Positions 1,460-58,641 are shown, numbered from the stretch's first letter. The stretch is DNA of 64,000 nucleotides from Tricharina praecox (GCF_024521635.1 NW_026250417.1:186001-250000); one strand, 5' to 3'. Program-made: numbers and translations. The notes: generated by a model not told the origin, from the letters alone.

Positions 1460-4062
<2,603 letters not shown>

Positions 4063-5209
4063 ATACACGGGTGACTGGGGGAAGTCGTGCGTCCTTGGGC
4101 TGGGTCTGGGTTGAGTTGGAGCTCTCCTGCGTATACCATTTCGTGCTTTGATCATGGGGTTTCGGTAAACAGTGGGGAATGGGATGGACGGATGGCATAC
4201 GATAGATGGCAGATGGAATCGAACATGCCCCCACTGCTCTGAGCAATTTTGTGACCCATCGTAAAGTGATATTGTGGCCACGCAGATGAATCTAGAAAGC
4301 CACCGCCTTTCTCCCGCCGTCAGGTCTTCCTTCCCTCCTTGGAGAAATGCAAGTGTACTATTCTCTTGGCGGCCGATAATCAATTGGCTTGTTTGTTATT
4401 TTTATCCACGAATGACGCAGCCAGTGCCACTTGCCCACTCCCAGTGCCCAGACTAGCAAACACGCATTGGCAATTTGGCAGCCTCGTCCTCGTCTTCGTT
4501 GTCAGTGCCCACAGCCCACAGCCTTCCCTGCCCGCAAACAGACGGCTACCCACATATCTACCCACAGGACATGAACATGAACACGACATGCATGTGTTTT
4601 TGCGCGTTTCACGGGGCTCGCCAATTCCTAGGGCGAGCGGGCGAGGGGGGCAAACCGCATATGGCCAATTGCGATTGCGATGTTGTGTGGAATGGTCGGG
4701 TGGGTGGTTGGTGGACAGGGGGGGTTTGGTTGAGTTGTCAGGTTGTCAGAGACCACCGACCTATGTACCGTACAGACATACCGACCTACATACCGACCTA
4801 CATACCGACCGGGCGAGCGACCGGACGATCCTGGCCGGGTTCGTCATCGTCCTGGCCACTCCGCTCGAGGAGAGAAGGCGACTACATACATACGGTATGG
4901 ATGGTATGGATAGTGCTATGGATGGTACTATGGAGTGCTCTATCTATCTGTCTAACCATCTGTCTATCTATCGTGCCGCTCCCGCCCACACTCTTCCTCT
5001 TCCTTTCCGTCTCCCCCCCTCGCTCACCCTTCTCCTCACGAGTCACCGCCGTCGTCACCACCATATATCATATACCATATATACCGACCGATCTTCTGCA
5101 ACCAGCCGACGAACCGAACGAACGAAACGAACGGAGTGAAACGAAACAACCGTCGGCGACACGAAATAATAATACCAAATTCGAAAGGCAGCACTGAGCA
5201 CTGAGCAGT

Positions 5210-5346
5210 CCCCCCCCCCCCCCCCCCCCCCCCCCCGCGGCTACCCGTCCCGTCCGTCCCGTCCGCCCGCCCGCTCCCGTAGCTATCTCGCAAACACCAC
5301 CACCACCACCACCACCACCACCACCACCACCACCACCACCACCACC
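5210..5346. repeat. Poly-C tract followed by (CCA)n microsatellite
   Basis: C run at 5210-5236 and CCA/ACC repeats at about 5295-5346, upstream of the ATG at 5457. Confidence 0.9.
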
Positions 5347-5456
5347 AAAACACAAACAAAAACCTCGTACCCACACACCACCCCCTACCTTCGCCGCCTC
5401 TACTACCACACCGCCGCCTCCGCCGCCGTCCCACCACCACACCGGTCACACGCACC

Positions 5457-6245
5457 ATGTGTCTAATCCGCGTCAAACCCGAAATAGACTCCGACACGGA
5501 GCGGGAGCACTCCTTACCACCACGAATCGTCACCGAACGTCGCAGCTCTCGCGCGCAGCACGGCACCGCATCGCGCAACTCCGTGCGCGGCTCCGTGCGC
5601 GAGTCACGACGGGGTAGTCGGAACTCCATCCACTCGACGCGCGAGGCCCGGGAGGTGCGGGGGTCCCGGGAGTCAAGGGGGAGCTTCATCGAGACGGTGC
5701 AGATTCCGCCGCCGAGTGTGGTTTTGGGCGGTGGGGGGATGGGGATGGGTGCGGGGAGGACGGTCGTAAGGGAAACGCAGATTGTGCAAGCGCGCCCACC
5801 GCCAGCGACGACGACGACGCAGATAGTCAAGCACGATGGGCGGAGCCGGAGCCGCAGCCGCAGTCGGCAGCACCAGCAGCGCGAGGACGTGTCGGTATCC
5901 GAGTACCGGGGCTCGCACGCCAGTGTTGTGAGCAGTCGCAGCCGCGACGGCGGCAGGGAGCGCGAGCGCGGCTACTACGTCGACCAGAACCGGAGTCCGA
6001 GGAATTCATACCGCGCGCTGACTGCGGATGAGGCGCATCGGGGAAGTGTCGGTGGAGGACTGGGTGGTCTGGGCGCAGGTGGTGGGGAGAGGATCGGCTA
6101 TAATAATTTTCATGGGAGGAGGTCCGGTAGTGTTAACTATGTCAACCCTAGACATAGCCATATGAGTGTACGTAGCACTGGTGGCGCAGGCAGGATGTCA
6201 AGGGAGAAGGTGGTCGTTGTGGAGAAGGAGGGGGGGTATTATTGA
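5457..6245 (+). CDS. Arg/Ser-rich, low-complexity hypothetical protein (262 aa)
   Basis: Uninterrupted ATG-initiated ORF in good context (CACCATG). MCLIRVK N-terminus, RSRSRS repeats and an REKVVVVE C-terminus. No catalytic motif recognised. Confidence 0.7.
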   Translation: MCLIRVKPEIDSDTEREHSLPPRIVTERRSSRAQHGTASRNSVRGSVRESRRGSRNSIHSTREAREVRGSRESRGSFIETVQIPPPSVVLGGGGMGMGAGRTVVRETQIVQARPPPATTTTQIVKHDGRSRSRSRSRQHQQREDVSVSEYRGSHASVVSSRSRDGGRERERGYYVDQNRSPRNSYRALTADEAHRGSVGGGLGGLGAGGGERIGYNNFHGRRSGSVNYVNPRHSHMSVRSTGGAGRMSREKVVVVEKEGGYY

Positions 6246-13559: not shown

Positions 13560-15289
13560 GATCGCCAGTCATTCCATCCGAGCCAAACTTACATGTGTCT
13601 ACCCCACAGTTGCCCCCAACTCTGTACCGTACCTTCAATTCAAGAGCGAGGAAGGAAAGATCAGCTGCCTTTAAATATGGGGATCAGCTTTGAAGTGTTC
13701 CTTGCTAGTGCAGCTCGGCAGCAGTCAGACCAGCTCAAAGTCTACATCCATTTCCATCGCGGACACCCGAAGGGCGATGCAACATTCAGCCGGAGCAGCT
13801 ACCCGCATCGATTGTCCAGCGTGACAGCGCTTAGTGTTGCCCGACGCCTTAAGCGCTGCATGGCGGACAAATCAACATCGTTTCGCTACGTGGTTCATGT
13901 GTGCGTGTGTACAACACACAGATTCCGGCATGCGATGGAGACTGCCTCCAAACGTAGAGTTTGGCTTCGAAGAACGGCGGGCCGGGCACCGATCTTTTTT
14001 GTATGGAGCAACCCAAGAGTCGTACGTGACAGTCACCTCGTCTACTATGCCCAGCAGAGAGAAGGCTTCGAGGTTTAGGAACAATGAACAAAATGTTTAG
14101 TCTCGAGAAGAATGAGTCTGGCATCCAATCATACATATCAAAGTCGCATCAAGGACAGTGCGAAGAGGAACCCAAGAGAGAGAGAGACGAGGAAGGGAGG
14201 TAGAAGGGTCATAGCTTCATATAATGAGAGACCTGCGATGGGTACGGGCAACTGGGGTGACCAATTGAATTGCCTAGAAAGCAATAAGAAAAGAAAGCAG
14301 CCTGTGTTCTTCAGGCCAAACAACCCCCAAGTATCTCCGCGATGTTGAAGCACGGATGAGGGAAAACAATCGCAACAAACTGGTACACCACTGTGGTGAG
14401 ATGTCCGCTGTTACGATCCACTCGCCCCCGCTACTGCTCACTCCCTCCCATTAAAGCCCGCCGTCACAACATCAAATGTCATCGTCACATCAACGACTGC
14501 CGCCCCTGTCTGCCCCTATCCGCACTCCTGGGAAAGCTGGTCCCACCAGGTCTCAACCCGGTCTCCACCTCTTGGCTGAAGGTCCCAATCAAGTCTGCAG
14601 TCCCGGCATCTTGCGGCCTCACAAAGCCAACCTTACCGCTGGGTCCCACAATATGTAGGCGTTGTCGGCCAAAACCTGCTTTCATAAGTACATACAGTGA
14701 CCACGGGGATGCGATGGCAGAAAAGCAGGTAAGGAATCGTCTTCTATTCGCTTGGTTGGTGTCTGATTGCCACTCTGATTTCACTGTGCGAGAGACCGAG
14801 AACGCTCGTATATACTTCTCTAAACCTCGATTCTCTTTTAACCCTTGGAACAACCGTGTAAACTTCTACTATTTTGTCTACTCCGTTTAGTGTTGTTTAG
14901 GCGAACATGTCACCACAGCGTCCATATCCAACTCACCCGAGTGATATCACATGTATGTGTGTAACCTAAAATCCCATATTCCACCCAAAATACTGGCCAG
15001 AACTCTTCACAATCCCATGAAAAGTATCTCCAGCCGCTCCTGATACATAAAAGCCTCGTTTCCGTTCGCCGAGCCGTGTGACCTGGCATGGTCGCGCGAG
15101 CATCGCCGCAACGAGTTAATCCACAATGACGAACCTATCTAAATATCTTTCTCCTCCGTTCTTCCTTCCTTCCTTCCTTCCTTCCTCCTACAACCTCGAT
15201 CATCATCATCACCATCTCAGCCCATCGGCGGAATTTCATCATTAGCAATAAACAACTCTATGTTTCTTCATCATCTTCATCATCTTCAT

Positions 15290-48849: not shown

Positions 48850-51800
48850 ATGGCAGTTCGCATCCTCCACAACGACTACCCACACCGGTCCGTCGCGCTC
48901 GTCAGTCCATCCTACACACTCGTCTTCCACCATTCCAGCGGGAACACCAAAACCTCGGAGTCCAAATGCGCCGTCGAGTTCTCCGCGACGGAGAATGTCG
49001 ACCTGGCGGACTATAATGTCCTCTCAAACCAGCCGTGTCTGGGATGCCTCGGTATCATCAATATCGGACGGGATACGTTCCTGTGCACCATTTCGCTGTC
49101 GAGAGAGGTCGCGCAGGTCCGCCCGGGGGAGATGGTGTATCGGATCCTGGGGATCGAGTTTCGTATGTGAATGCTCGTGGAATGGGCGGGACGGAAGACC
49201 GGGGGTGAGGGCTAAACGTGTACGGATGGCCAGACTGTCTCAACCGCAGCGACTACGACAATTTCCTCGAGAACGAGATCAATCCGTATCCGGTCGAGAG
49301 CGACGGCTGGGACCAGGGGCGATCGCAGCAGCCGATAGGTGTCGAGCACCCATGTCTCGCCTTGAAAAAACTCCTCAGCGACGGAACGTTCTACTACTCT
49401 GGCGACTTCGACCTGACCAGTCGCCTACAGGACCGCTCGATCTCGCTCGATGACTTCGATATCGGCTCGTTTGATCCCGGGTTCATGTGGAATTCCCACA
49501 TGATTGGGTCGCTGCTGCAGTTTCGCTCGCATCTGGGTGATGAGGAGAAGGGCAGGCTGGATCATGCCGGCTTTTTGACGTGTGTGATTAGAGGGTTTGT
49601 GGAAAGTCTTACCATTCAGCGGCCGACCACTAGGATGGAGGGTAGGAGCCGGGCGACCGGGCTTCCAGCAAGGTTGACGTTGATTTCGAGACTGAGTTGT
49701 CGGAGAGCCGGGACGAGGTTCAATGCGCGCGGCATTGACGACGACGGTAATGTAGCGAATTTTGTCGAGACTGAGACGGTGATATGGAATCCGTCTTCCG
49801 GCCACCCGGCACGGGCCGTCGCATTCAGTTACTGCCAGATCCGCGGGAGCATACCGATATTCTGGGAGCAGCAGACGGGGATCTTGCCGAATCAGCAGAA
49901 AATACAGATCACGCGATCACCGGAGGCGACGCAGCCGGCGTTCGATAAACACATTGAGGGGGTGATACTGAAATATGGTTCTGCACATATCGTAGATCTC
50001 CTTTCGGAGACCAAATCCGGCGAGATCGAGCTGTCGACTAGATATAGACTGCACACCCAACACGTGTGCGGTCGCGGGAATGACAAAACTATCCGGGATC
50101 TACTGCGTAGCACTGAGTATGACTTCCATGCACAAACCAAGGGGCCGGCTGGGTACGAAGCGGCCAGTCAGATCCGAAGGATTGTGGAGGACTCCTCGGA
50201 TGCGTTTGGATACTTCCTGATGGAGGGTGCGTCCGAGGGCGAGGATGATCCGAAGGGAAGCTTCGTCGTCGTGTTGCAGCAGGAGGGTGTCTTCAGAACC
50301 AACTGCCTGGACTGCCTGGACCGCACAAATCTGGTCCAGGGAATACTGAGCAAGTCGGCCGTGGAGGCGTTCTTACAGCAGCGCGCGGAGGTCGTGGGTC
50401 ATGACTTTTGGATGCAGCATTCGACGCTGTGGGCCGATAATGGTGATGTTAGTTTCCTCCACTCCCTCCTCTTCGAAGCAGCAGTTGATGGGAATGAATA
50501 CGAAAGGCACTCTCCAAGATCTACGCCGGCACCGGTGCCCTCAAGTCGAGTTTCACCAGGACGGGGAAGATGAGTCTTGCGGGAGCTTTCGCGGATGCCC
50601 GGAAAAGTGCCACGCGCGTGTATATCAATAATTTTGCAGACAAAGATAGACAGAATACCATTGATGTTCTACTGGTATGGGTCCACAAGTGATAGAATTT
50701 GGAAACGCATTATTCTTTTTTTGCTTACTTTTGGCCCCGGTTTGGTTGTGTAGGGTAGACTTGTGGGCCAGGAACCGGTGTCTCTATATGATCCGGCGAA
50801 TGACTATGTCACCGCGGAGTTGAATAAGAGGTTGATCCTTCTACATCTGCACGCTGGAGCGTATCTGATACGGACGAAATAGATCCTCCGAATTCACCAC
50901 CGAACTGCCGGTCCACATCTACGCCGGCACCTTCAACCTCAACGGCAAGACCACCGGCATAGACCATGACCTGACAGAATGGCTCCGCCCGCCGTTTCTC
51001 AGCGACGTGGAAAAGAAGCCAGAGCTGGTCGTCGTGGGCTTCCAGGAAATCGTCGAATTGAGTCCGCAGCAGATCATGGCTACTGATCCCGCCAGAAGAA
51101 AGCTGTGGGAAACAGCCCTGCTTAAGTGTCTCAACCGGGATAACGATGATCCGTATATCCTGCTGCGAGGTGGACAGCTGGTTGGTGCGGCGCTGCTGAT
51201 TTTTGTGCGCTCGTCGGTTATTGGGGAGATCAAGAACGTGGAAGGGAGCTTGAAGAAGGTACGCATTTTGCCGTGAGGGTTCCAATGATGAGTGCTGACA
51301 GATTTATGGACCGGCCTGTCCGGCAACGCGGGCAACAAAGGTGCCGTCGCGATTCGGATGGAATACGCCAGCACTCGCCTCTGCTTCGTAACCGCGCATC
51401 TCGCCGCGGGCTTTTCCAACTACGACGAGCGGAACAAAGACTACGCCACGATCGCCAACGGACTCCGCTTCCAGCGAGGCCGCAAGATCGAAGACCACGA
51501 TGCCGTCATTTGGCTGGGCGACTTCAATTACCGCATTGGACTCCCTGATGAGAAAGTCCGGAAGCTCGTCGAGATAGGCGATCTGCAGACGCTTTACGAT
51601 AACGATCAGTTGCAGAATGCGATGGTTGCGGGATTGACATTCCCATACTATACGGAAAGCAGGATCAATTTCGATCCTACGTATAAATATGATATCGGTA
51701 GCGATGATTATGATACCTCGTTTGTTGCCCTGCGCCTTACTCCCGCAGTCAATGGCTGATATCTTTGCCAGTGAAAAACGCCGAATCCCAGCCTGGTGTG

Positions 51801-52707: not shown

Positions 52708-53688
52708 TTGGCAGTTGGCAGTTGGTTGTAAGGTGTCGTTGCTTTGAGCGTGAGTGCGTTTTTGTATGGTATGGCAATTGTGGATGGCACGTAGCTAGGC
52801 TTAAGATGGTCTGATTGAGATATACACGTGGCAACACCTGGGTTTCGGTTTGATTGCAGGGAGCTAGAGTCTGGAGATAATCATGCCCGTCCGCTTTGCC
52901 GTAGTGAGGTCTTGAATCAAAATTCACAATACCGAACGCCGAAAGATCCGCTGATCCTCCGTAGAGACTCGATCCTCGATGCGCAATCAACAGCTTAGCC
53001 TGGAGCTTTGCTGTTCCGTAACCCCGTAACCCCATGTCAAGGTATGCAAGTGTGGAGAGGGGAAGCTGCGGGAGTGATGTGGTTTATATATTGCCGTTCC
53101 GGAAGGACATTGTAACATGAAAGGATTAGCAGTTCGACATGGCATGTCACTCGGTACAGAATTTCGAGGCCGAATTTTTTAGCAGATGGCAGAAATGGAG
53201 AGAAATGTGCAGCAGCTTGCGCATAGATATCCAACAGCTGTCAATACTGCCTTGTGCTATGGGATGCAGAGCGGCAACCGGCTTCCCAGTGGGTAGAGGA
53301 GCAAGTCGGTGGTCACCTCGGACCCCCAAAATAGGGAGTCAGTCACGACCCCCAAGGGTTCGGAGTCATCAGTCCTTGAGGTCAAGGCACCCGAGGGGAG
53401 AGCAACGGCCAAGGTAAGCACGGTGAACCAGCTGCCGAGGTGGATGAGTGCACATGCTGAGGTTGGAGATTGTGTTGTGGACACAGGCAAGTAGATTCTG
53501 TTGAGGGTGTCGGGAGAAAGCGTGTGAGCAAGCGTGCGGTCGGACCCACACCGCACCCGACTCGCACGTGTCTTGAAGTCGGCCGGCGAGCTTCGATTCT
53601 CACCTACCCTCGTTCCCAGCCCTAAGCCCCCAGTCAGCTAGCTACTTCCCGTCGGCGAAATCGGCCCCCCTAGAACACCTAGAACACC

Positions 53689-53695
53689 TATAAAA
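53689..53695 (+). promoter_or_regulatory. TATA box of U1 copy A
   Basis: TATAAAA about 52 nt upstream of ATACTTACCT, followed by a C/T-rich spacer. Confidence 0.7.
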
Positions 53696-53740
53696 CCCCC
53701 CGTCCCCACCCACCCTTCCTCCTCTTTTCTTTTCTTCTTC

Positions 53741-53895
53741 ATACTTACCTTGATGCGACTTTGCTGGCTCATCGATCAGTAAAGCTCCAGGGATAAGGTT
53801 CTCATTGCACAGCGAGAATCGAGTCTCTGCGAATGATCTTAGGGTCTTTCGGCATCGCAATTTTTGATTTCTTCCTTTTTTGATGAAGGCGTTTT
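53741..53895 (+). ncRNA. U1: U1 snRNA, copy A
   Basis: 5' ATACTTACCT; helix H GATGC/GCATC; stem I CTTTGCTG/CAGTAAAG; stem II with ATTGCAC loop; stem III; Sm site AATTTTTG at 53859-53866. The 3' end is approximate. Confidence 0.88.
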
Positions 53896-54145
53896 CCATC
53901 GGTTACTTGGGTGCTCTGTGAGGCCGAGGTGGCGAAGGAGGATGGTATGGAGGATCTGCGGCATGGCGTATGGAAGTTGTACATACTGTGAGTAAACCCA
54001 ATACAGCGCAAGCACAGTGTAAAGAAATATTCATGGTCCCAAACTTCATGGCTTACATCCATCCCATCCCGTCAGCTGTCGTATCAGGACACCCGATGCG
54101 ATCTTTCTTGCAGCCATCATATGTACCGTAGTTTACAATAAAGAC

Positions 54146-54411
54146 GCAGACGAGCGGTACAGCCAGGGCGCAGGCCATCCTAGATTTCCTCTCATCCACT
54201 GATGTGGGCAGACGGATCCCAGAGGTCGCTGAGGAAGGTGCAGCATGTGAGGTGTCCGAGTGGGAGCCCGGGGAGAGGGAAGAGAGGGAGGCGGAGCTGC
54301 GGCGAGCGGAGCTGCGGCGAGAGGAGGAGGAGGATGCTGAGGTCGAGGAACCGCGATCACTCCCGCTGTTCCTCCCCACACCCTCTTCTATGGCGTCTCC
54401 TGATGAAGTAG
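54146..54411 (+). mobile_element. 5'-truncated, frameshifted 3' remnant of a non-LTR (LINE-like) retrotransposon ORF2
   Basis: Translates as ADERYSQ/QAILDFLSSTDVGRRIP..EVSEWE..ERE..LPLFLPTPSSMAS. From memory, this resembles the C-terminal tail of fungal non-LTR ORF2 proteins. A small insertion near 54167 breaks the frame. Confidence 0.55.
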
Positions 54412-54604
54412 CAGGGGGCAGGCGGGGGAAGCCACGTCGGGCCGCTTGACGAAAGCCGGGTTGGACAGTGGTGTGGAAACGGAGTGTGTACGGGCGGATA
54501 TTACCATGACCTGTCTCCGGAGCAAGAGGGAGTCCTGATCGATGTAACACATTTTCTTCGAAGTCTCGGCCTTCTGAGGAGAGAGCCCAGCACCATCAAC
54601 GAAA

Positions 54605-54759
54605 ACGCCTTCATCAGAGCGGGGGAAGAAATCAAAAATTGCGACGCCGAAAGGCCCGAAGACCTTTCGCAGAGACACTCGACCCTCGCTGTGCAATGAG
54701 GGGGTGTCTCTGGAGCTTTGCTGATTGTTGAGCCAACAAAGCCGCATCAAGGTAAGTAT
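54605..54759 (-). ncRNA. U1: U1 snRNA, copy B
   Basis: Reverse complement reads ATACTTACCTTGATGCG GCTTTGTTG-loop-CAGCAAAGC, CAGAGACAC..CCCTC ATTGCACAGC GAGGG..GTGTCTCTG, GAAAGGTC-TTCG-GGCCTTTC, then GCGTC and Sm site AATTTTTG (54640-54633). Confidence 0.9.
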
Positions 54760-54797
54760 AAAGAAGAAAAGGAAACGGTGGGTGGGGGGAAGGGGGC

Positions 54798-54909
54798 TTT
54801 TATAGGGGTTTTTGCTGGCTAGTTTGGCGACACTGCGTGTCACTCGGTCAAAAACCCTGGCTAGCTACTTCCCGTCGGCGAAATCGACCCCCCTAGAACA
54901 CCTATAAAA
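54798..54909. promoter_or_regulatory. Back-to-back TATA boxes of the divergently transcribed U1 copies B and C
   Basis: TATAAAA on the minus strand at 54804-54798 and on the plus strand at 54903-54909. Confidence 0.7.
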
Positions 54910-54953
54910 CCCCCCGTCCCCGCCCCCCCTTTCTCCTCTTTCCTTTCTTCTTC

Positions 54954-55105
54954 ATACTTATTTTGATGCGACTTTGCTGGCTCAACCATCAGCAAAGCTC
55001 CAGAGATAAGGTTCTCATTGCACAGTGAGAATCGAGTCTCTGCGAATGATCTTCGGATATTTTGGCAACTCAATTTTTGTGTGCTTCTGCGTTTTCCGTC
55101 GGGCA
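54954..55105 (+). ncRNA. U1: U1 snRNA variant or pseudogene, copy C, with altered 5' end
   Basis: Starts ATACTTATTTTG instead of ATACTTACCTTG. Stems I-II, the ATTGCAC loop, the TTCG stem III loop and the Sm site (55072-55079) are retained. Helix H carries a mismatch (GCAAC). Confidence 0.8.
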
Positions 55106-55921
55106 CTTGGGCGCTCAGTGAGGCCGAGGTGGCGAAGGATGATGGTATGAAGGATTGCGGCGTGCTGTGTGGGTTGTAGGTATGGCATACGGCTGCGGGG
55201 CCGAGACGTGGAAGAAAATGGATCTAGACATAGTAGGCCGCCAAACCCGTGCGAGTGATGAATCCGCCAAAAAACCAGATGCTCGCTCCCACCGCTGAGC
55301 ACCTCCTATGTCTTTACGCCCCTCCTCGTTAGTGGAACCTCCCCCTTAAGGAGCAGCTACCTAGAGTAGCCGATCGCAGCAGCACCCGAATCCCAGCGGG
55401 GGAGAGTCCACCAGTGCCCACCAGTGCCCAACAGTGCGGCGGGTGGGGGGGCAGAGCACTCGACCAACGGTCCAACCCTTCCACCCCGTTACCGCTCTGG
55501 GCCCTGGAGGCTGGAGTTCTTCAACCCGCCAGCGGGCCAGCGGCGACCTACATCAGCGTAAGTATACATGATACCTTTTCCCAGCCGGCCAGACCGCACA
55601 TTCGAGGACCTTGCGGATTTCGTGCAGGCTGCGGCCGACTCGGGCTAGACTGCGGGCTAGACTGCGGGCTGGACTGTGGGCTACGGGTTCTGGAAACACC
55701 ACACCACACCACACCACGGCAAAAACAACCAGCACCGCACCCAGACCCGCACCCGCACCCAAACCCATCACTAGAAGTCTAGACTATGCACCACGCAGCC
55801 CTGCCGCCACCGGTCCACAAAGAATGCAGAATACGTTCTGGCCGACTCTCCCGCACCCCGCCCGCCGTCCGCCTGGCGCCCAGGTCCTTCCGACGGGACT
55901 ACCGTGAGCGACGGAATGCGT

Positions 55922-56080
55922 GACTGCCAGGACTGCTGGGACTACTGAGACTGCTGAGACTGCTAGGACTGCTAGGACTGCTAGGACTGCTAGGACTACC
56001 GGGACTGCTGGAACTGCTGGAACTGCTGGGGCTACCAGGACTGCTGGGACTGCCGTGACTACCGGGAGCGACGGGACTGC
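55922..56080. repeat. 9-bp tandem repeat (GACTGCTAG/GACTGCTGG)n
   Basis: More than a dozen degenerate units are directly visible. Confidence 0.85.
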
Positions 56081-57175: not shown

Positions 57176-58641
57176 TTAGGCAAGCATGGCTTGAGCTCCG
57201 GCCTCCGACACGACGTAGATCACGCGATGATCGTCGCTGAAACCGTTGAACTTGGTGGCTGAGCACTTGGAGTAGGCTGATATCTATCGTTAGCATCGCG
57301 AATGGGTAGTCAGGGATGAAGGGGGATACGAACCTCCCATGTTAGTGAAGTATAGCCAGTCCCCAACCTCCAAGACCTCCGGGAGGAAGCACGACTTGGA
57401 GATGCAGTCGATACCGTCGCAGGTGGGGCCCCAGACGGAGCACTCGGTGAGCTGCACCCCGCGGGTCGGCGGTGAGTTGTAGTGGTAATCGGATCCGCGC
57501 TTCAGCACCCTCGGCACGGGGATCTGGTGGTCGAACATGATGCCCGAGAAGTTGCCGTACACGCCGTCGTTCATGTACAGCATGTAGGACTGTTGACCGG
57601 CCTTCAACTCGTCCTGCACGGTGCGACGGGCGATGACGTGGGTGGCGATCGTGAAGGCGCTCTCGACGTAGTAGCGGCCGGGCTCGGCGATGACGCGGAC
57701 GCTCGACGGGAAGTACTTGTCGACCGCCGGTCCCAAAACGCTGGCGATCTGCTCAAAGTTGTCGTTCCCGTATCCACCACCGACATCCAACGTGCGCAGG
57801 TCGTAACCAATCTCGGCAGCTTCATCGAAGACCTTGCGGGCGTCCTTAACGGCGGTAGCGAATGCGGTAGGGTCGTACGATCCGGACCCGACGTGGAAGC
57901 TGACACCGACGACGTTCAATCCGAGCTCCTTGGCCAAGCGAAGGAGATCGGCAGTGCTGTCGAGAGGCGCTCCGTACTTGAGACTCAGCCGGCAGAGGGA
58001 CTTGGAGTCGTCGGTCGAGATACGCAGGAACAGCATCGCGTCGGGGAAGAACTTCTTGACCTTGTAGAGCTCTTCTGGGTTGTCGAAGGTCATCATGCGG
58101 ATGTTCTCCTCGGCTGCATAGCGCACGTATGAGGCCGTCTTGCAGGGATTGGCGTAGATGATGCGCATCGGGTCGACGCCCATCTCGATGACTTGCTGGA
58201 TCTCGGTCTTCGAAGCGCAGTCGAAGCCGGTGCCAAGCGCGGCGAGAAGCTGCAGGACTTTAGGATCCTGGTTGCACTTCACAGCTGCAGAGAGAGAGAG
58301 GTTAGTATCACAACGGCTTGTGGTGCGAGACATAAAAGTAATATAAATAAAAAAGATAATAATAATATTGATGACGTACCATAGAAGGGCTCGATACGGG
58401 GAAGGTTAACCTTCCAGCGCATGTGCTGGCGGTAAATTTCGCCGAGGTCGGCAACGAAGAAGGCATCTTCGGCACCAGCATCGCACTCGTCGGGGTCGAT
58501 GCTCTCGATGTGAGTCTGAAGGGCATGGCCGATCATGGCCTGAGCCAGGGACCTGGTGCACGCATTGGATTGACTGAAGCGGCGCTGCTGAGGCGACAGC
58601 TTCGACGTAACGGGCGAAGTACCTAGGGCGACGGGAGCCAT
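57176..58641 (-). CDS. SPE1: Ornithine decarboxylase, 3 exons
   Basis: FFVADLG, PFY|AVKCN (PLP Lys), GFDCAS, HVGSG, LDVGGG, EPGRYY, WGPTCDGID and MG|AYSKCSATKFNGF. Strong-context ATG at 58641 (ACCATGG); a weaker in-frame ATG lies at 58722. Confidence 0.96.

Follow-up and report, generated by a model that had tools for sequence, protein, structure and literature searches.

A cluster of U1 snRNA gene copies in Tricharina praecox with two diverged, apparently functional genes, a probably decaying duplicate and a relic

U1 gene copies at the locus

The stretch of Tricharina praecox DNA analysed here (NW_026250417.1:186001-250000; 64,000 nucleotides, hereafter the window, with positions counted from its first letter) contains, within 2.3 kb, four copies of the gene for the U1 spliceosomal small nuclear RNA (snRNA). 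Two of these are intact-looking but diverged, one looks impaired and one is a wreck. Copy A (53741..53889, plus strand, ~149 nt) and copy B (54609..54759, minus strand, ~150 nt), which is the most canonical of the set, form the intact-looking pair. Copy C (54954..55089, plus strand) is a U1-derived gene that is probably impaired, and copy D (52915..53051, minus strand) is a degraded U1 relic. The cluster is located in the intergenic space between a gene for a synaptojanin-type inositol phosphatase and a gene for ornithine decarboxylase.

A pattern combining the U1 5' end, loop II and the Sm site (ATACTTAYYT..CATTGCAC..AATTTTTG) has exactly three matches in the 64-kb window, where 100 shuffles give an expectation of 0. 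The matches begin at 53741 (+), 54759 (-) and 54954 (+), the positions at which a first-pass annotation of the window had placed three U1-like genes, and all three are matched by the Rfam U1 model, RF00003. That inventory was correct for A, B and C and overlooked a fourth copy, D, which is detected with an nhmmer profile of the U1 body (E 2.5e-13, profile positions 4-116) built from nine bodies that do not include D itself. At the RF00003 gathering score of 69.5 bits there are no matches in the window. The matches reported here, obtained with E-value thresholds, are those of copy A at 53741-53890 (+; 51.3 bits, whole-window E 7e-10), copy B at 54628-54759 (-; 50.1 bits, E 1.5e-9) and copy C at 54954-55108 (+; 42.6 bits, E 2.2e-7), so that the covariance-model check proposed with the first-pass annotation gives significant matches, all of them below the gathering score. 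An empty search at the gathering threshold is what would be seen if the matches were due to chance or to something other than U1. That explanation is already refuted, and we give it practically no credence: E-values reach 7e-10, the motif pattern has an expectation of 0, related genes score alike, and covariation across them is strong.

For comparison, metagenome contigs of the Joint Genome Institute were scanned with the same pattern, yielding at least 116 U1 loci; all counts from this set, here and below, are among the loci listed. In 16 of these metagenomic loci RF00003 gives 17 U1 hits, 13 of which are below 69.5 bits (range 32.8-67.5). They include all six of the close relatives used here (L053, L103, L104, L073, L054 and L026; 70-87% identity by BLAST), which score 50.1-56.0 bits; copy C lies under all six. 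The remaining four hits score 105.6-155.5 bits, and we take their loci to be non-fungal because they are clustered with other snRNA, 5S or U3 genes. One such locus (L009) has U1, U2, U3, U4 and tRNA genes within ~3 kb and another (L080) has U1, U6, 5S and U4 within ~3 kb; L002 also has a dense small RNA gene cluster within ~3 kb. The U1 of L081, on the same contig as L080, scores 105.6 bits and has a variant 5' end, ACUUACUU. Since 13 of the 17 metagenomic hits, including every close relative, fail the gathering score, this score is too strict for the fungal lineage concerned, of which A and B are typical. A, B and C are real U1 genes. Further Rfam matches across 54731-54982, to MIR1858, MIR2118, MIR408 and mir-H20, lie far under their gathering scores (48 versus 137 bits) and were rejected as artefacts of the inverted repeat formed by B and C.

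From an alignment of the three copies and the six relatives, nine sequences in all, RNAalifold derives a consensus containing helix H and all three stem-loops, I, II and III. Standard pairs occupy 95.0% of the 418 pair cells (shuffled mean, 86.9%) and both partners are changed in 20 of 48 pairs (shuffled mean, 9.7), with neither value reached in any of 500 shuffles. When the 3' partners are slid by 1-3 columns, pairing drops to 41-55%. The U1 four-way junction is therefore present with covariation, and the number of its 32 consensus pairs that are broken is one in A, one in B and three in C; D has no cloverleaf.

Copies A and B and their flanking elements

In its minimum free energy (MFE) fold, copy A forms helix H, stem-loops I-III and stem IV and leaves both the 5' end (ACUUACCU) and the Sm site single-stranded (-44.7 kcal/mol, z -2.67). 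The fold of copy B shows the cloverleaf, with the 5' end and the Sm site likewise unpaired (-53.8 kcal/mol, z -3.97); the stretch folded for B stopped before the 3' strand of stem IV, which is thus absent from its fold. The single-stranded ACUUACCU end, complementary to the 5' splice site, is found in A and B and not in C or D. An Sm site has the consensus purine-AUUUUUG-purine and is followed by the terminal stem-loop IV; A and B have AAUUUUUGA followed by a UUUCUUC/GAUGAAG stem. The loop II sequence AUUGCAC, the site for U1A, is the same in all nine aligned sequences and reads AUUGCGC in D. This loop and the loop of stem-loop I (for U1-70K) were judged by sequence, and protein binding is predicted.

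Of the 122 positions aligned from the 5' end to the Sm site, 19 differ between A and B, 12 of them in paired columns, and there are 3 further indel columns. No difference falls in the 5' end, the AUUGCAC loop or the Sm site. Double compensation is seen at three pairs, of which stem II has two (U-A to C-G) and stem III has one (A-U to G-C). The stem differences quoted in the first-pass annotation as preserving pairing are correct, and that in stem II (UUCUC/GAGAA versus CCCUC/GAGGG) comprises the two pairs changed on both sides. In stem I the differences are also as quoted and pairing is kept, but they are one-sided changes to G-U wobbles rather than double compensations.

B is the better preserved of the two in several respects: it has no private change at any column on which the other eight sequences agree, all nine pairs of stem III are formed beneath a UUCG loop, and its fold is the strongest. 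A has two such private changes, a UUAG loop where UUCG is otherwise invariant, and a U-U mismatch in stem III. These features would fit a locus in which a single copy, most likely B, supplies functional U1, with A, C and D being duplicates at different stages of decay. We consider this improbable, though it is the most credible of the alternatives. Stem II of A contains two doubly compensated pairs relative to all of the other sequences, which implies selection on the A/C lineage; A breaks as few consensus pairs as B and has every motif intact; and its 3' flank is of a type conserved in a relative (L103) and covered by a contig from a sequencing run of another organism (X2).

Two kinds of 3' flank can be told apart, the A type (UUUUCCAUCG...) and the B type (UUUUCGUUGAUG...). 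The flanks of A and B differ from one another at 19 of 49 positions, whereas the flank of L103 differs from that of A at 7 of 50 and the flank of L053 from that of B at 8 of 52; L053 also shares with B a 2-nt insertion between stems II and III. L103 and L104 are arranged in tandem on one 1532-nt contig, with starts 900 nt apart and bodies that differ at 2 of 123 positions. The flank of L103 is of the A type and the start of the L104 flank is of the B type. No second U1 copy was found near L053, L073, L054 or L026 in the available DNA, which amounts to at least 800 nt on at least one side. Contigs of four sequencing runs that match the locus are short pieces from other organisms, and the lack of contig cover over the bodies of A and C in these runs is uninformative. 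Contigs of run X2, from a different organism that is ~90% alike, cover the 3' flank of A and the body of B. A 147-nt contig from a soil metatranscriptome (X5) matches the body of B with 8 differences and is the U1 of another fungus. Because both flank types occur in relatives (L103/L104, L053 and the X2 contigs), there appear to be two maintained paralogue types that predate the split of these fungi. The first-pass annotation had reasoned that copies missing from relatives would be simple decaying duplicates, and this does not apply to A and B, whose types are both found there. To judge from these comparisons, A and B look like functional U1 genes.

Each gene is preceded by promoter-like sequence. 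The promoter of A (53689..53740, +) comprises TATAAAA at 53689-53695 and a C/T-rich leader up to the gene start; the TATAAAA box of B is at 54796..54802 (-), 43 nt upstream; and the promoter of C (54860..54953, +), copied from that of A (repeat family D4, 94% identical), has TATAAAA at 54903-54909 and a pyrimidine leader. The distance from the start of the box to the gene is 52 nt in A, 43 nt in B and 51 nt in C, close to the 45-52 nt given previously, with B falling just short. In all nine aligned genes TATAAA stands at a conserved distance and is followed by a C/T-rich leader to the first base. More widely, metagenomic genes starting ATACTTACCTTG and having 200 nt of upstream sequence possess a leader of at least 80% C/T over 20 nt in 41 of 43 cases, compared to 12 of 64 other metagenomic genes with a leader of at least 80% pyrimidine; exact TATAAA lies between -65 and -35 in 15 of the 43. 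Just before the TATA box of A there is a tandem duplication of a 9-nt unit (AGAACACCT; 53666-53688) that is not present in C. A 21-nt element containing GAGTGAC, as read on the minus strand, lies in the intergenic region shared by B and C (54828..54848; repeat family D5) and is 86% identical to a second at 53135-53155, the two being ~70-90 nt upstream of B and of relic D, respectively. GAGTGAC is also found upstream of L026 (-90), L053 (-115) and L104 (-95), but these are the only 3 of the 43 genes of this class to have it. The element may be a lineage-specific upstream promoter element common to the divergent B/C pair.

Directly after stem IV, all copies but D can form a long imperfect hairpin with a stem of 21-24 bp and a loop of 3-4 nt, which is seen in the folds of A, B, C, L053 and L103. 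In A (53888..53946, +) it is ~24 bp long with bulges and a 3-nt loop, and is conserved in the nine-sequence alignment; in B (54542..54614, -) the same consensus hairpin has a ~24-bp core (-26.4 kcal/mol, z -2.53); and in C (55090..55144, +) it is retained at ~21 bp, with one of 16 consensus pairs broken, as in A. No 3' hairpin was found at D by folding (z 0.29). In the RNAalifold consensus the hairpin corresponds to helices 7 and 8, whose 16 pairs include 7 that are changed on both sides, with 93-95% of cells paired. In Schizosaccharomyces pombe, hairpins with stems of 23-32 nt are described directly downstream of snU1, snU2, snU4 and snU5; Pac1 binds these snRNA genes, and RNA polymerase II reads through in its absence (PMC8421224). 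The hairpins at the present locus have the structure expected of a Pac1/Rnt1 terminator on that account, namely a stem of ~20 bp or more directly 3' of the snRNA, and by analogy they are probably signals for RNase III cleavage and transcription termination.

Copies C and D and the surroundings of the cluster

Copy C is a duplicate of the whole A unit (~330 bp, roughly 53635-53968 to 54858-55168), with 94% identity upstream and 90% in the 3' flank; the 82% figure obtained for this repeat (family D1) by ungapped comparison is depressed by an indel. C is positioned so that it forms a head-to-head inverted repeat with B, with arms of 89 nt that are 82% complementary. The bodies of C and A differ at 13 of 123 positions and no difference is doubly compensated. 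Polarised with B and the six relatives, nine of these changes are derived in C, three are derived in A and one is ambiguous. Divergence is not meaningfully different between body (13/123) and flank (6/51). C has 7 private changes at columns that are identical in the other eight sequences, and only L026, the most distant relative, is similar, with 6.

Several of the changes in C affect parts of U1 on which function is expected to depend. Its 5' end, ACUUAUUU, has UU for CC at positions 8-9, in the sequence that pairs with the 5' splice site. At the corresponding site the metagenomic genes read ACC in 115 of 116 cases, ACU in 1 and AUU in 0, although the search pattern allowed any pyrimidine. 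Two of the six pairs of helix H are broken; the base following the Sm site (AAUUUUUGU) is U where the other eight sequences have A; and ~15 nt have been deleted, including stem IV. In the MFE fold the 5' end is no longer free, being paired with the new bases after the Sm site, the Sm region is sequestered as well, and the AUUGCAC loop is closed by way of an AGC-to-AGU change in loop II. The first-pass annotation had regarded C as a further structure-preserving variant, having overlooked the altered 5' end and the loss of stem IV. That view is not supported, given the absence of compensation (0 of 13), the 3 broken pairs of 32 and the private changes, and on sequence grounds C is most likely a decaying or non-functional copy. 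Two other interpretations of features of C were rejected: the 'stem IV' that cmscan reports at 55080-55108 is built with the 5' arm of the conserved hairpin in the 3' flank and includes several pairs that are not standard, and repeat-induced point mutation is not indicated, as C-to-T or G-to-A changes make up 6 of the 9 derived in C but 0 are in CpA/TpG and 2 are in CpG.

C might instead be an expressed and functional variant U1, with U8/U9 at its 5' end conferring a different 5' splice-site preference or a regulatory, non-splicing role. Its promoter block is 94% identical to that of A, it has an intact terminator hairpin and both the AUUGCAC and the AAUUUUUG motif, and folding still predicts the core cloverleaf. 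The high-scoring U1 of L081 (non-fungal, 105.6 bits) shows a single C-to-U change at the same site, next to a canonical copy on the same contig, and variant U1 genes in humans that were once called pseudogenes are described as transcribed and processed (PMC3561869). Set against these points, C has lost stem IV, has a weakened helix H and an altered base after the Sm site, and carries uncompensated changes at otherwise invariant columns; its ATT 5' end occurs in none of the 116 other U1 genes; and its changes are spread over body and flank, as neutral decay predicts. We therefore regard a functional C as unlikely, somewhat more so than a locus served by B alone. A stronger proposal, in which C is a transcribed, specialised variant U1 and A and B are in addition non-redundant isoforms with different snRNA-protein particle properties, seems more doubtful still. 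If it were true, U8/U9 of C would form Watson-Crick pairs with A at intron +1 and exon -1 (for example at sites of the A|AUAAGU type), or would pair weakly with normal sites, and this filamentous fungus would have a U1 isoform dedicated to a small class of unusual splice sites or to damping U1 activity. Were C expressed, it would offer a tractable fungal model of variant U1 function.

Copy D is clearly a relic. The 5' end is disrupted, a short GGGGTTACGG duplication stands in place of stem I, the Sm site reads GAAUUUUGA, and its MFE fold lacks the cloverleaf (z -0.25). A TATATAAA box is present upstream (53083..53090, -), ~40 nt before the position homologous to the U1 start. Decay of this kind is seen elsewhere, on a fungal metagenome contig (L004:1112-1625, -) that carries two tandem U1-like copies ~370 nt apart. 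The second of these has no TATA box and no Sm site and lies behind a CATACT microsatellite; duplication and decay are therefore not peculiar to the present genome.

On either side of the cluster, the flanking genes are as named in the first-pass annotation (INP53 and ODC): SacI-homology and 5-phosphatase domains are encoded at 49218-51759 (+) and ornithine decarboxylase at 57290-58333 (-), the nearest Atlas clusters of the decarboxylase being mostly from Ascomycota. No Pfam families were found in the open reading frames (ORFs) inside the cluster (54053-54550, minus; 55414-55782, plus). A GA-rich, low-complexity stretch between A and B (54140-54490) receives most of the X1 and X2 matches, from many contigs, at a depth of up to about 4000-6000 and at less than 95% identity; these matches probably reflect a common simple-sequence motif and not the A-B locus. 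Downstream of the cluster, 55913-55993 is a tandem array with a 9-nt period (GACTGCTGG-like) and at least six overlapping 36-nt copies.

Far from the cluster, at 14139-14154 (-; context 14100-14240), there is an exact 16-nt copy of U1 positions 8-23 (CCTTGATGCGACTTTG). With one mismatch allowed this segment has three matches in the window against 0.01 expected, the other two being copies A and B. The distant copy is preceded by a pyrimidine-rich tract and a TATA-like TTATATGAAG and is followed directly by an ATG-initiated ORF of 95 amino acids without a Pfam family. One possibility is that a fifth U1 unit left this fragment, another that a different gene has reused a U1 promoter and leader.

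Turnover of the cluster and comparison with known systems

Taken together, the evidence favours, with reasonable though not full confidence, a U1 cluster that is turning over by duplication and decay, in which A and B are functional, C is probably decaying, D is a relic and the 3'-flank hairpin acts as a terminator. In such a locus A and B, which are convergent, would be two functional U1 genes of ~150 nt, each an independent RNA polymerase II unit with a TATA box, a pyrimidine-rich leader and a long imperfect 3' hairpin. An RNase III homologue would cut the hairpin, ending transcription and starting 3' trimming, as the fission-yeast analogy suggests. A and B would represent two old types of paralogue that differ in their 3' flanks and have both persisted in related fungi, and whose bodies have drifted apart while base pairing was preserved. 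C would be a younger duplicate of the A unit, set head to head with B, which retained the promoter and terminator hairpin but changed at the 5' end where it binds the splice site, in helix H, at the base that follows the Sm site and in stem IV, and D would be an old relic of the same process.

A number of observations weigh against this interpretation. The structure used for the pair counts was taken from the same alignment and is hence favoured. C-derived changes outnumber those derived in A (9 versus 3), but not significantly when taken alone (one-sided binomial, 0.07), and polarisation of the 3' flank is ambiguous, an X2 contig resembling C at three positions there. The TATA box, the leader, the terminator hairpin, the core of the Sm site and most of the cloverleaf (z -3.84) are still present in C, which may well be transcribed. 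Folding z-scores for the hairpin are modest (-1.3 to -2.5, with L103 at +1.45), and RNase III cleavage is carried over from a distant yeast. The terms 'functional' for A and B and 'impaired' for C are assigned from sequence alone, and there may be other U1 genes elsewhere in the genome, such that A or B is not the main source of U1.

The first-pass annotation proposed that structure-preserving divergence had kept more than one copy under selection and that the locus may hold a fungal variant-U1 family. For A and B the first part is borne out by the three compensated pairs and the presence of both types in relatives, and they can be described as two diverged paralogues that have been kept. It is not borne out for C. 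Given an uncompensated C and a relic D, the locus is one of gene birth and decay and not a family of three selected variants. Nor is 'variant U1' in the human sense supported for A and B, because their differences lie in stems and spare the protein-binding and splice-site-binding sequences. The locus represents normal turnover of a gene family rather than a novel kind of RNA, and its modest value comes from the gap in annotation, the conservation of the terminator hairpin and the status of copy C. As the Rfam gathering score misses these genes, automated annotation would leave such genomes without any U1. In practice, snRNA genes of these fungi could be recognised and delimited by their TATA box near -50, the pyrimidine-rich leader that follows it and, immediately 3' of the gene, a hairpin that covaries. 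The locus also suggests that snRNA termination triggered by RNase III, as in fission yeast, extends to filamentous fungi. It shows that, in some filamentous ascomycetes at least, U1 genes occur as small families of linked copies with turnover by duplication and decay. In budding and fission yeast, the U1 gene is single-copy. A search of the literature, with most subscription journals not covered, brought up no account of linked and diverged U1 genes clustered in any filamentous fungus, and within the same limits no paper on clustered or variant U1 in filamentous fungi besides PMC2377427. Supplementary Table S7 of PMC11347168 covers minor-spliceosome snRNAs only and has no fungal U1 counts.

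Compared with the Rfam U1 family, A and B have the expected 5' end (AUACUUACCU), four-way junction with helix H, stem-loops I-III, AUUGCAC loop, AAUUUUUGA and stem IV. They differ in scoring 50-51 bits, below the gathering score, and in the shortness of stem IV, while in C stem IV is missing and positions 8-9 read UU instead of CC. The resemblance to the Pac1 hairpins of S. pombe lies in a long, imperfect, small-loop hairpin directly after the mature snRNA; the stems here are ~21-24 bp rather than 23-32, and their role is assigned by analogy. The closest fungal precedent is Aspergillus fumigatus, another filamentous ascomycete in which more than one U1 gene gives rise to sequence isoforms: U1-1 and U1-2 are reported as two expressed isoforms, encoded at separate loci and differing by 1 nt, with 157 and 67 cDNA clones (PMC2377427). 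In T. praecox A and B differ at 19 of 122 positions, lie ~1 kb apart with two degraded copies beside them, and are known from their sequence. Multigene U1 families with variants and pseudogenes are known in humans and flies (PMC3561869, PMC10645366). The human variant U1 genes and pseudogenes and the five Drosophila U1 genes resemble the present locus in that canonical copies, divergent copies with altered 5' ends and dead copies are clustered. Here the family is much smaller, with four copies seen, the variant copy is known from sequence, and the promoter is of the TATA type, in contrast to the proximal and distal sequence elements of those genes. The 3' ends of U1 in these animals are formed by Integrator and a 3' box, whereas in T. 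praecox they would presumably be formed through an RNase III hairpin.

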